Positions 17,707-29,129 are shown, counted from the stretch's first letter. The stretch: DNA of 40,343 nt from Escherichia coli (GCF_003334355.1 NZ_QOWP01000033.1), one strand, 5' to 3'. The notes: a model not told the origin generated them from the sequence alone. Program-made: numbers and translations.

Positions 17707-18960
17707 ATGACATTCTCCCTTTTTGGTGACAAATTTACCCGCCACTCCGGCATTACGCTGTTGATGGAAGATCTGAACGACGGTTTACGCACGCCTGGCG
17801 CGATTATGCTCGGCGGCGGTAATCCGGCGCAGATCCCGGAAATGCAGGACTACTTCCAGACGCTACTGACCGACATGCTGGAAAGTGGCAAAGCGACTGA
17901 TGCACTGTGTAACTACGACGGTCCACAGGGGAAAACGGAGCTACTCACACTGCTTGCCGGAATGCTGCGCGAGAAGTTGGGTTGGGATATCGAACCACAG
18001 AATATTGCACTAACAAACGGCAGCCAGAGCGCGTTTTTCTACTTATTTAACCTGTTTGCCGGACGCCGTGCCGATGGTCGGGTCAAAAAAGTGCTGTTCC
18101 CGCTTGCACCGGAATACATTGGCTATGCTGACGCCGGACTGGAAGAAGATCTGTTTGTCTCTGCGCGTCCGAATATTGAACTGCTGCCGGAAGGCCAGTT
18201 TAAATACCACGTCGATTTTGAGCATCTGCATATTGGCGAAGAAACCGGGATGATTTGCGTCTCCCGGCCGACGAATCCAACAGGCAATGTGATTACTGAC
18301 GAAGAGTTGCTGAAGCTTGACGCGCTGGCGAACCAACACGGCATTCCGCTGGTGATTGATAACGCTTATGGCGTCCCGTTCCCGGGTATCATCTTCAGTG
18401 AAGCGCGCCCGCTATGGAATCCGAATATCGTGCTGTGCATGAGTCTTTCCAAGCTGGGTCTACCTGGCTCCCGCTGCGGCATTATCATCGCCAATGAAAA
18501 AATCATCACCGCCATCACCAATATGAACGGCATTATCAGCCTGGCACCTGGCGGTATTGGTCCGGCGATGATGTGTGAAATGATTAAGCGTAACGATCTG
18601 CTGCGCCTGTCTGAAACAGTCATCAAACCGTTTTACTACCAGCGTGTTCAGGAAACTATCGCCATCATTCGCCGCTATTTACCGGAAAATCGCTGCCTGA
18701 TTCATAAACCGGAAGGAGCCATTTTCCTCTGGCTATGGTTTAAGGATTTGCCCATTACGACCGAGCAGCTCTATCAGCGCCTGAAAGCACGCGGCGTGCT
18801 GATGGTGCCGGGGCACAACTTCTTCCCAGGGCTGGATAAACCGTGGCCGCATACGCATCAATGTATGCGCATGAACTACGTACCAGAGCCGGAGAAAATT
18901 GAGGCGGGGGTGAAGATTCTGGCGGAAGAGATAGAAAGAGCCTGGGCTGAAAGTCACTAA
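17707..18960 (+). CDS. avtA: Valine--pyruvate aminotransferase
   Basis: ORF from 17602; the expected start MTFSLFGDKF gives 417 aa; class I aminotransferase with PLP-lysine motif SLSKLG. Confidence 0.93.
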   Translation: MTFSLFGDKFTRHSGITLLMEDLNDGLRTPGAIMLGGGNPAQIPEMQDYFQTLLTDMLESGKATDALCNYDGPQGKTELLTLLAGMLREKLGWDIEPQNIALTNGSQSAFFYLFNLFAGRRADGRVKKVLFPLAPEYIGYADAGLEEDLFVSARPNIELLPEGQFKYHVDFEHLHIGEETGMICVSRPTNPTGNVITDEELLKLDALANQHGIPLVIDNAYGVPFPGIIFSEARPLWNPNIVLCMSLSKLGLPGSRCGIIIANEKIITAITNMNGIISLAPGGIGPAMMCEMIKRNDLLRLSETVIKPFYYQRVQETIAIIRRYLPENRCLIHKPEGAIFLWLWFKDLPITTEQLYQRLKARGVLMVPGHNFFPGLDKPWPHTHQCMRMNYVPEPEKIEAGVKILAEEIERAWAESH

Positions 18961-18964
18961 AAAT

Positions 18965-19064
18965 TGCCTGATGCGCTACGCTTATCAGGCCTACATGATT
19001 TCTGCAATATATTGAATTTGGAAGAATTTGTAGGCCGGATAAGGCGTTTACGCCGCATCTGGCA
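18965..19064. repeat. BIME (pair of inverted REP units)
   Basis: TGCCTGATGCGCTACGCTTATCAGGCCTAC at 18965-18994 and GTAGGCCGGATAAGGCGTTTACGCCGCATCTGGCA at 19030-19064, in opposite orientations. Confidence 0.7.
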
Positions 19065-19110
19065 TAAACAAAGCGCACTGTTCCGGCGTTGAGAAACGCC
19101 GGAAAACGTT

Positions 19111-19584
19111 TCAAACAGGCTGCTGCCGTAGCCGATGCCGCTGCACTTTCTCGACATCCATGCACTGCAACGCCTTTGTCGGGCAGGCTTCAACACAGGC
19201 CGGTCCCGTCTCCCGATGCCAGCACAGATCGCACTTAATCGCCCTCGCCTTTTTGCGCGAAGAAACGACCTCCATCGCACCAAACGGGCAAGCCAGCATA
19301 CAGCTTTTACAGCCAATGCAACGTGTTTGTTCAACGAAAATATGCCCATGTTCGCGGCTTATCGCGTCAACAGGGCAGACATTCGCGCACGGTGCATCTT
19401 CACACTGATGACAGGCTACTGCCGTGGTCCAGCAGTGGTCTTTAATGACACGAATACGGGAAATAAACTCGTCTGGTGACAACGCAGCGCAATCCTGATT
19501 CTCATGATGCGACACTGCGCAAGCCACTTCACAGGTACGGCAACCGATACATTTCGTCGCATCCGCAATAATAAACCGGTTCAT
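19111..19584 (-). CDS. ysaA: 4Fe-4S polyferredoxin-like protein (HycB/HydN family)
   Basis: 157 aa (second Met of the ORF); four Cys clusters visible: CIGCRTCEVAC, CHQCEDAPCANVCP, CIGCKSCMLACP, CDLCWHRETGPACVEACP. Confidence 0.88.
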   Translation of the reverse strand: MNRFIIADATKCIGCRTCEVACAVSHHENQDCAALSPDEFISRIRVIKDHCWTTAVACHQCEDAPCANVCPVDAISREHGHIFVEQTRCIGCKSCMLACPFGAMEVVSSRKKARAIKCDLCWHRETGPACVEACPTKALQCMDVEKVQRHRLRQQPV

Positions 19585-19685
19585 GATCACTCCTTTGCAC
19601 TAAAACAGCAGAGTGCCAGAGAGCGCGTCCCTACTGCTTTGATCCAACGAAGGAAATGTTAAAGTTTTGGCACTTGTCCAATGCG

Positions 19686-20534
19686 TTATGTGATCGCGCC
19701 CAGGTCGTCCCTGACAGTAAATCCCAGTTCATTAGAAATAGCCTGCGCGGTTTCACGCAGTGGTTTCAGGAGATTTTTCTCCCCCACCTGTTTCAGACGT
19801 GATGTCGAAAGCGAAATCGACACGGCGTACGGCACCCGCCCATGAATATCAAACACCGGAACAGCAATACAGGAGACGCCGAGTTCGTTTTCTTCTCTGT
19901 CCATCGCCGCTCCGCTTTCACGAATGTGCGCCAGTTCGTCGAACATCGCGGGCAGCTCGGTAATGGTATTGCGGGTTAACGGCTGGATCTCATGCTGATG
20001 GCTTTCCCAGTATGACTTCACGTAGTCCGGGTGACCAAACGCCATGTAGATCTTGCCCATTGCGGAACAGTAGAGCGGCATATGCTGGCCAATATAGGCA
20101 CGGGTTCGCAGCATCCCGGTTGTCGGCTCCAGCTTATAAATCAAAATAGCGTGATCGTCTTCGCGGCTGGAGAAGTTAATGGTTTCACCAGTGGCGATGT
20201 TCAGTGCCTCAAGATGCGGAGCGGCGATATGAATGATATTCAGCGAAGACAGCGCCTTCTGCCCGACGGCAATAAATTTGGTGGTCAGGCGATAACTCCC
20301 TGCGGCAGGCGCGGTGGTCACATAGCCGCAGGACTGTAATCCCTGCAATAAGCGATGGACGGTACTCTTATTTAAACCAGCCAGCTCCGAAAGATGCGCC
20401 AACGGACAACCGTTTGGATAGTTGCTCAAAATCTCAATCAGCATCAACCCGCGAAACAGACTCTGGCTTCCGGCTGGACGCTCTTTTTCCTGCGCCATCT
20501 CGTTCTCTTTTTTTCCCATCACTTCTTTCCCCAT
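19686..20534 (-). CDS. yiaJ: IclR-family transcriptional repressor of the yiaK-sgbE operon
   Basis: 282 aa; N-terminal HTH (…LSELAGLNKSTVHRLLQGL…) and C-terminal IclR effector domain; divergent from yiaK. Confidence 0.93.
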   Translation of the reverse strand: MGKEVMGKKENEMAQEKERPAGSQSLFRGLMLIEILSNYPNGCPLAHLSELAGLNKSTVHRLLQGLQSCGYVTTAPAAGSYRLTTKFIAVGQKALSSLNIIHIAAPHLEALNIATGETINFSSREDDHAILIYKLEPTTGMLRTRAYIGQHMPLYCSAMGKIYMAFGHPDYVKSYWESHQHEIQPLTRNTITELPAMFDELAHIRESGAAMDREENELGVSCIAVPVFDIHGRVPYAVSISLSTSRLKQVGEKNLLKPLRETAQAISNELGFTVRDDLGAIT

Positions 20535-20581: not shown

Positions 20582-20734
20582 TCGACAGATAATTTATAAC
20601 CAATTGATTTTTATGTCTTTTGAAATTCATCAATCAGATTGCTTTGTTAAAAAGTGATCGATATATTTGAAATCAAGTTTCGCATATTGAAATTTTAAGC
20701 CAAAAAAGCGATCAAAAAAACAAGGAAGCCTGGG

Positions 20735-28813: not shown

Positions 28814-29129
28814 ACTACGAATTGATATGTTCCTTGCTGTAACGCCGCTTCCACGCTGCTGGCGTTAAACCAGTATGTTTCTGAAAAATCTGCCGGAAAT
28901 AGCCAACGTCATTAAACCGTATTGCATGGAGCAGGCCGACAACGTCGAGTCACTGCATAACCTGTTGCTGCCCGCCGATGCGCCATTTACGACATTTGAA
29001 GGCAAGGGATTGTTCAGCCATAAGATCCTGATTCAGACGCCAGGTTCCCGGTATGAACAGAGCAATCCAGAGCAACAACCTTTGTGGCATTACGACGGAG
29101 CACCAGCCGCACCGACATCCACCGGTGAA

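Follow-up and report, generated by a model that had tools for sequence, protein, structure and literature searches.

Four-cluster ferredoxin-like modules join formate dehydrogenases or other Mo/W enzymes to their partners in several described systems, among them HycB3/HycB4 of the hydrogen-dependent CO2 reductase (HDCR) and the polyferredoxin subunits of W-aldehyde oxidoreductases, which are homo- or hetero-polymeric electron wires. In the formate hydrogenlyase (FHL) of Escherichia coli, the four [4Fe-4S] clusters of HycB form the relay from FdhF, and the FHL structure paper reported that FdhF is only loosely bound to the complex and may interact with other proteins. [quoted passage not shown]

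A further protein of this kind, YsaA, was studied by Pinske 2018 (PMC6004506), whose premise was that no oxidoreductase or hydrogenase gene lies near ysaA. In that work, the benzyl-viologen activity of formate dehydrogenase H (FDH-H) fell to 57% of the parental value on deletion of ysaA and to about 59% on deletion of hydN; the effects were additive, with 28% left in the ysaA hydN double mutant and 1% in the triple mutant that also lacked hycB. The ysaA deletion was complemented by pysaA or phydN, and the hydN deletion was not complemented by pysaA. H2 evolution and the FdhF protein level were unaltered in the ysaA mutant, and deletion of aegA caused no further loss of FDH-H activity on top of the hydN, ysaA or hycB deletions. 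Two-hybrid assays gave strong signals of YsaA with AegA (5,867/6,150 MU), HycB (3,896/4,215 MU), HydN (3,072/4,608 MU), HycF and itself, weaker ones with FdnH, NarH and NuoE, and 694 MU with FdhF, in one orientation only, against a threshold of 600 MU; the two-hybrid partners of HydN were the same, and HydN was reported to be recalcitrant to over-production. Pinske 2018 concluded that HydN and YsaA are probable alternative small subunits that direct FDH-H electrons to non-hydrogen-producing complexes (PMC6004506). The gene, its orphan position and its probable FdhF partner were thus already published in 2018. The preliminary description of the locus had called the redox partner not evident, which holds for the E. 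coli gene context alone but not for the literature, where FdhF has been named.

The window analysed here is a stretch of 40,343 nucleotides of E. coli DNA, which over the 1.7 kb tested is 100% identical to the chromosome of strain ATCC 8739. As the preliminary description had proposed, the gene at 19111..19584 on the minus strand is ysaA: translation from an ATG gives 157 amino acids and a stop, and RefSeq places ysaA at the identical locus. A Shine-Dalgarno sequence read from the DNA, AAGGAG (19590..19595, minus strand), lies 5 nt from this ATG, and its GGAG is kept at the same place in the orthologues of the leader alignment. A longer product from an in-frame GTG at 19590, two codons 5' of the ATG, was considered and found implausible, because AAGGAG abuts the GTG and leaves no room for a ribosome-binding site, as against 5 nt before the ATG. 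A 114-aa open reading frame antisense to ysaA (19135-19479, plus strand) is probably not coding.

Of the 19 cysteines of YsaA, 16 make up four CxxCx(2-8)CxxxC motifs: C12-x2-C15-x2-C18-x3-C22, C58-x2-C61-x4-C66-x3-C70-P, C89-x2-C92-x2-C95-x3-C99-P and C118-x2-C121-x8-C130-x3-C134-P. Composition-preserving shuffling of YsaA yielded four such motifs in none of 100,000 sequences and three in 2 of 100,000, and among all stop-to-stop segments of 100 aa or more in the 40-kb window, only that of YsaA contains the motif, so the four complete motifs described beforehand are real. All 16 ligand cysteines are invariant across 34 YsaA sequences, which include the 33 orthologue loci found among the best 80 of at least 483 relatives. 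As to the other cysteines, C141 (codon 19162-19164) is also invariant in 34/34 YsaA sequences and in most HydN sequences and is not a cluster ligand, judged by homology to HycB; C51 (codon 19432-19434) is confined to typical E. coli, 3% of the aligned sequences.

The cysteine spacing, on which the preliminary description had let its assignment depend, fits 4Fe-4S models: Pfam recognises Fer4_11 (1.8e-12) and other 4Fe-4S families, and NCBIfam ranks HydN first, followed by the N-termini of AegA and YgfT. Among proteins of solved structure, HycB from formate hydrogenlyase is closest (7z0s_B, E = 2.8e-36), and all four Cys groups align with its cluster ligands; HycB3 of HDCR (2e-34) and FdnH (3.2e-12) were further matches. 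An AF2 model (pLDDT 79.5, pTM 0.73; residues 51-59 poorly defined) retrieved only four-cluster subunits as top Foldseek matches (TM 0.55-0.68), the best being HycB 7z0s_B and HDCR HycB3/HycB4, and the modelled structure displays a double bacterial-ferredoxin fold. By sequence, YsaA can be classed as a HycB/HydN-type four-cluster ferredoxin-like protein, a type that includes beta subunits of Mo/W-bisPGD enzymes, and it is predicted to be a small soluble protein carrying four [4Fe-4S] clusters in the HycB/HydN arrangement.

The closest paralogue is HydN of the E. coli hydN-hypF operon, which is 62-65% identical to YsaA and has in common with it the four Cys groups and the N-terminus MNRFIIAD. 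However, against the HydN equivalog model NF007658, whose curated cut-off is 260 bits and on which true HydN genes score 376-381 bits (E. coli HydN 380.6, Cedecea HydN 376.5), YsaA reaches only 214.6 bits. HydN has a loop of about 14 residues between Cys groups 3 and 4 and a C-terminal tail, and YsaA lacks both; Pinske 2018 proposed the loop as part of the interface with the partner (PMC6004506). Different in length as well, HydN has 175-185 aa, whereas 33 YsaA orthologues among the best 80 of at least 483 relatives have 151-165 aa, bar one of 184 aa in Superficieibacter. In the same set of relatives HydN reaches Proteus, Serratia and Yersinia, whereas YsaA is confined to Enterobacteriaceae; hydN is preceded by an FhlA inverted repeat and a sigma54 promoter, and ysaA by neither. 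Score, length, loop, tail and locus all separate YsaA from HydN proper, and at the sequence level it appears as a fast-evolving, trimmed HydN paralogue.

HycB (PDB 7Z0S/7Z0T), which is also the best match by fold (Foldseek E = 1.7e-13, TM 0.62), is only about 40% identical to YsaA, has a loop between Cys groups 3 and 4 that is about 32 aa longer, and also has a tail. H2 production depends on HycB, which is a stable FHL subunit, and neither is true of YsaA (PMC6004506). YsaA can be aligned over its full length to the NCBIfam models of AegA (residues 1-154, 176 bits) and YgfT (residues 1-149, 137 bits). Both of those proteins, however, carry the module joined to a GltD-like NAD(P)H/flavin domain, and YsaA consists of the module alone. 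AegA is the strongest two-hybrid partner of YsaA and, unlike YsaA, gave no signal with FdhF (PMC6004506). The next-best matches by both sequence and fold were HDCR HycB3/HycB4 (PDB 7QV7) and the polyferredoxin subunits of W-aldehyde oxidoreductases (8C0Z, 9MQX); in comparison with these polymeric wires, self-contact of YsaA is known only as a two-hybrid signal (4,237 MU; PMC6004506).

The gene order in the window is malS and avtA on the plus strand, ysaA and yiaJ on the minus strand, and yiaK-yiaO-lyxK-sgbHUE on the plus strand. The neighbours were thus named correctly beforehand: avtA (valine-pyruvate transaminase; 17707..18960, plus strand) is convergent with ysaA, and the IclR-family regulator gene yiaJ (19686..20534, minus strand) lies upstream in the same direction, separated by a gap of 101 nt and possibly co-transcribed. 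Searches with tblastn for homologues of FdhF, HypF, HycE, HycG, HycI and NixA found no match in the 40-kb window, in agreement with the earlier statement that no catalytic subunit is adjacent. Between the convergent stop codons of avtA and ysaA lies a REP/BIME hairpin cluster (18961..19110, no strand assigned), which folds strongly on both strands (z-scores -6.3 and -5.8) and in which Rfam finds ES036 at 18987-19029 and a sub-threshold naRNA4, both REP-derived families; the query sequence searched against E. coli genomes had a median of 31 matching sites in each. The cluster probably forms the 3' end of the ysaA and avtA mRNAs and stabilises them.

For comparison of loci, one genome per species was scanned and the best 80 of at least 483 relatives were retained, comprising 33 YsaA-type, 45 HydN-type, one AegA-like fusion and two outliers; the counts of loci that follow refer to these best 80. 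Homologues of FdhF, HypF, HycE, HycG, HycI or a nickel transporter occurred within 8 kb of ysaA at 0/33 loci, and neither aegA nor ygfT adjoined ysaA at any of the 33. At the 45 hydN loci, by comparison, fdhF lay 12-43 nt downstream in 25 and hypF directly downstream in 14, so that 39/45 hydN genes had one of the two immediately downstream as against 0/33 ysaA genes; hyc genes were usually less than 8 kb from hydN-type loci, and the identities of the linked fdhF, hypF and hyc genes were confirmed by NCBIfam. The orphan state is therefore a fixed property of ysaA across the 33 loci found among the best 80 of at least 483 relatives, and because its sister gene hydN is linked to fdhF, the published FdhF partner is supported by paralogy. 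It was also seen that every fdhF directly following hydN (25 loci among the best 80 of at least 483 relatives, e.g. L030:8584-10734, L063 and L081) encodes Cys (ARV-C-HGPS) at the position of the E. coli FdhF selenocysteine, which marks the hydN-linked enzymes as Cys-type FDH-H; Leclercia and Silvania have a second FdhF-like gene about 5.6 kb downstream.

On the downstream side, avtA was the convergent neighbour in about 30 of the 33 ysaA loci from the best 80 of at least 483 relatives. The upstream neighbour was always co-directional, its identity varying among yiaJ (16 loci), an AraC-like gene (10), selB (4), yiaT (2) and aldB (1). selA and selB make selenocysteine for FdhF and other formate dehydrogenases. 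In the window, selB-selA (about 36020-39252) is encoded like ysaA on the minus strand, 16 kb upstream of it, and the genes in between in E. coli are yiaJ-sgbE, yiaT-W, aldB and yiaY. selB is directly upstream of ysaA in Kosakonia, where the order is yibF-selA-selB-ysaA followed by convergent avtA, and in Enterobacter sp. Bisph1 and K. oxytoca (L013, L014, L016, L049; gaps 126-791 nt), from which it follows that the 16 kb in E. coli are variable cargo.

In Cedecea and Buttiauxella (L030, L042, L056, L084), a whole formate regulon (fhlA-hypEDCBA | hycA-I-hydN-fdhF-hypF-nixA) directly adjoins avtA-malS and so fills the avtA-side slot that ysaA has in E. coli. This hints, at low probability, that ysaA is a remnant of a formate-regulon island next to avtA. 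As the main reading it was set aside, because only the avtA-malS flank of the Cedecea island is common with the ysaA locus, the other flank being sodA/rha-like and not selAB, and because a neighbour-joining tree without bootstrap placed YsaA outside all HydN and not beside the Cedecea/Buttiauxella HydN, a position possibly due to long-branch attraction. The formate regulon in the avtA slot, together with the leader block described below, might merit follow-up, and neither was part of the preliminary description.

The ysaA gene is a single-copy chromosomal core gene in 5424/5426 complete E. coli genomes, and the 33 orthologue loci among the best 80 of at least 483 relatives span at least 12 genera of Enterobacteriaceae. 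With dN/dS of 0.05-0.13, ysaA is under purifying selection, although its dN is 3-5 times as high as HydN's when identical species pairs are compared, and the faster change at non-synonymous sites could mean a looser or a different role than that of HydN. The ysaA mRNA is polysome-associated (Poly-seq, PMC5001579), and a 2.7-fold anaerobic increase is attributed to Kang et al. 2005 as cited in Pinske 2018 (PMC6004506); these reports and the dN/dS values answer the objection, raised beforehand, that the gene might not be expressed.

The preliminary description had also called ysaA monocistronic, and this is unproven, since yiaJ, 101 nt upstream, has the same orientation, no terminator was found in the gap, and the leader reaches at least to -75. 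The last point comes from PMC5001579, where Table 1 lists ysaA with a MazF cut distance of 75; an ACA, the MazF cleavage site, was confirmed in the window sequence at 19657..19659 (minus strand), -75 from the ysaA AUG, so the leader covers most of the 101-nt gap. A scan of the yiaJ-ysaA gap for sigma70 promoters and terminators found none, the sole terminator-like hairpin of the scan being located inside yiaJ. Read-through from yiaJ into ysaA, or co-transcription of the two, is thus possible. In the divergent yiaJ/yiaK promoter region, TTGAAATTCATCAA at 20620-20633 is one mismatch from the FNR consensus TTGAT-N4-ATCAA, and if yiaJ and ysaA are co-transcribed, this FNR-like sequence could bear on the anaerobic induction of ysaA.

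Regulation of its own is nevertheless likely for ysaA. In an alignment of 21 species (A1; window 19585-19700), a conserved block of about 110 nt accompanies ysaA irrespective of the upstream gene, with invariant GATCAA(A/G)GC and (C)TCTGGCAC(T)CTG at fixed spacing and a T-run. On the minus strand of the window these elements appear as GGATCAAAGC / GATCAAAGC at 19636..19645, in which GATCAA is invariant, as CTCTGGCACTCTG at 19609..19621, which is nearly invariant in the 21 species whatever the upstream gene, and as the T-run at 19602-19605 after the latter. In Enterobacter and Lelliottia a deletion has removed the block, and ysaA directly adjoins yiaJ; in four genomes of these genera its ATG is 3 nt past the yiaJ stop. 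In addition, a weak gSELEX peak of the RNAP-sigmaE holoenzyme was reported in vitro in the yiaJ-ysaA spacer (PMC5493296). It is the retention of the block beside any upstream gene, together with the sigmaE binding in the spacer, that argues for separate regulation.

Several candidate elements in this leader were examined and rejected. The conserved TGGCAC of the CTCTGGCACTCTG block offers a good -24 element of a sigma54 promoter, but no species has GC at -12, and it is only about 30 nt from the ysaA ATG, which also excludes it as a working sigma54 element; it is possible that it is a relic of the hydN promoter. Searches of the yiaJ-ysaA gap with up to two mismatches found neither a sigma54 consensus nor an FNR box, the latter including the 19636-19645 block, and no FhlA-type inverted repeat was found upstream of ysaA. 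In the parts consulted, genome-wide studies of sigma54 name neither ysaA nor yiaJ. Partial matches to sigmaE sites in the leader failed across species or in spacing. At the RNA level, RNAalifold gave no consensus structure for the leader block and Rfam no match in the yiaJ-ysaA gap; a hairpin in which the CUCUG block would sequester the GGAG of the Shine-Dalgarno sequence appeared in 11/21 minimum-energy folds, but with a mean z-score of only -0.7, and the hairpin followed by a U-run in the E. coli leader is not conserved.

As to function, we lean slightly towards the reading that YsaA is a soluble four-cluster wire on FdhF, which would carry formate electrons to acceptors other than hydrogenase 3, AegA and YgfT being the best candidates. 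YsaA would dock on cytoplasmic FdhF as an alternative small subunit in the manner of HycB, presumably take electrons directly from the [4Fe-4S] cluster of FdhF, pass them along its own four clusters, and hand them to some protein other than hydrogenase 3. Candidates for this acceptor are AegA and YgfT, two proteins of formate-dependent urate utilisation, through their HydN-like N-terminal domains. We know of no physiological electron flow that depends on YsaA. [quoted passage not shown] Against docking on FdhF, the two-hybrid signal with FdhF barely exceeded the threshold, the ysaA phenotype was confined to an artificial dye and YsaA was absent from purified FHL (PMC6004506); moreover, fdhF, aegA and ygfT never adjoin ysaA at the 33 loci of the best 80 of at least 483 relatives, and the dN of YsaA is several times that of HydN. 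The same phenotype in the dye assay alone, with H2 output unaltered, would also be expected if YsaA were a low-potential Fe-S protein of a generic, promiscuous kind that serves no particular partner. The loss of FDH-H activity would then be an assay effect, with benzyl viologen taking its electrons mainly from the exposed clusters of any HycB-like protein bound to FdhF. The signals with many Fe-S proteins including FdnH, NarH and NuoE suggest that the contacts may be promiscuous, Pinske warns of non-specific interactions (PMC6004506), and YsaA evolves faster than HydN. We nevertheless consider this explanation rather unlikely, since the Fdx control gave no interactions and HydN and AegA did not bind FdnH or NarH, which means that the two-hybrid contacts were not indiscriminate, and since deletion of aegA was non-additive although AegA has a HydN-like domain (PMC6004506); a single-copy core gene under purifying selection in at least 12 genera also speaks against it.

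The weak and orientation-dependent contact with FdhF would likewise suit a transient one (PMC6004506), as of an assembly or holding factor that protects or matures the Fe-S/Mo-bisPGD site of FdhF before it joins FHL and is not an electron conduit, and the paralogue hydN shares its E. coli transcript with a maturase gene. Yet the amount and gel migration of FdhF were unaltered, H2 was normal in the ysaA, hydN and double mutants, extra copies did not compete with HycB, other Mo-bisPGD enzymes were unaffected, and Pinske judged the idea unlikely (PMC6004506); as 16 invariant cluster ligands also suit an electron wire better than a chaperone, we regard such a role as improbable. Equally doubtful is a wider proposal, in which ysaA would be the surviving, trimmed hydN of an avtA-side hyc-hydN-fdhF-hypF island and YsaA a minimal connector in hetero-oligomeric Fe-S wires with HydN, HycB and the HydN-like domains of AegA/YgfT, in the manner of HDCR HycB3/HycB4 filaments, spreading FdhF electrons to several acceptors with its expression set by the conserved leader element. 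Finally, the 101-nt distance to yiaJ on the same strand with no terminator found, a leader of at least 75 nt, and the gap of just 3 nt in Enterobacter and Lelliottia could place ysaA functionally in the yiaJ/yiaK-S (2,3-diketo-L-gulonate/L-xylulose) system, as an electron supplier co-transcribed with the repressor gene. However, linkage to the yia operon is not conserved: yiaJ is upstream at only 16 of the 33 loci from the best 80 of at least 483 relatives, the leader is kept beside selB, aldB, yiaT and AraC-like genes, and ysaA is retained where the locus has no yia genes, e.g. in Kosakonia. To our knowledge, the enzymes of the yia pathway are NADH- or ATP-dependent and need no ferredoxin, and we give this explanation hardly any credence. 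The hydN-fdhF linkage, the orphan ysaA fixed beside avtA, the leader block and the strong published YsaA-AegA contact provide handles on which acceptors take FDH-H electrons off hydrogenase 3.

Two minor features were observed elsewhere in the window. Between sgbE (araD-like) and yiaT, RefSeq annotates two short pseudogene fragments (about 28816-29109), one an AraC-family C-terminal piece and the other hypothetical. At the window start, Rfam detects a sok antitoxin RNA (17-156, minus strand; 70.1 bits, above the gathering score). In the ATCC 8739 record that matches the window, an IS3-family transposase gene ends next to it, which suggests a hok/sok locus neighbouring an IS element.
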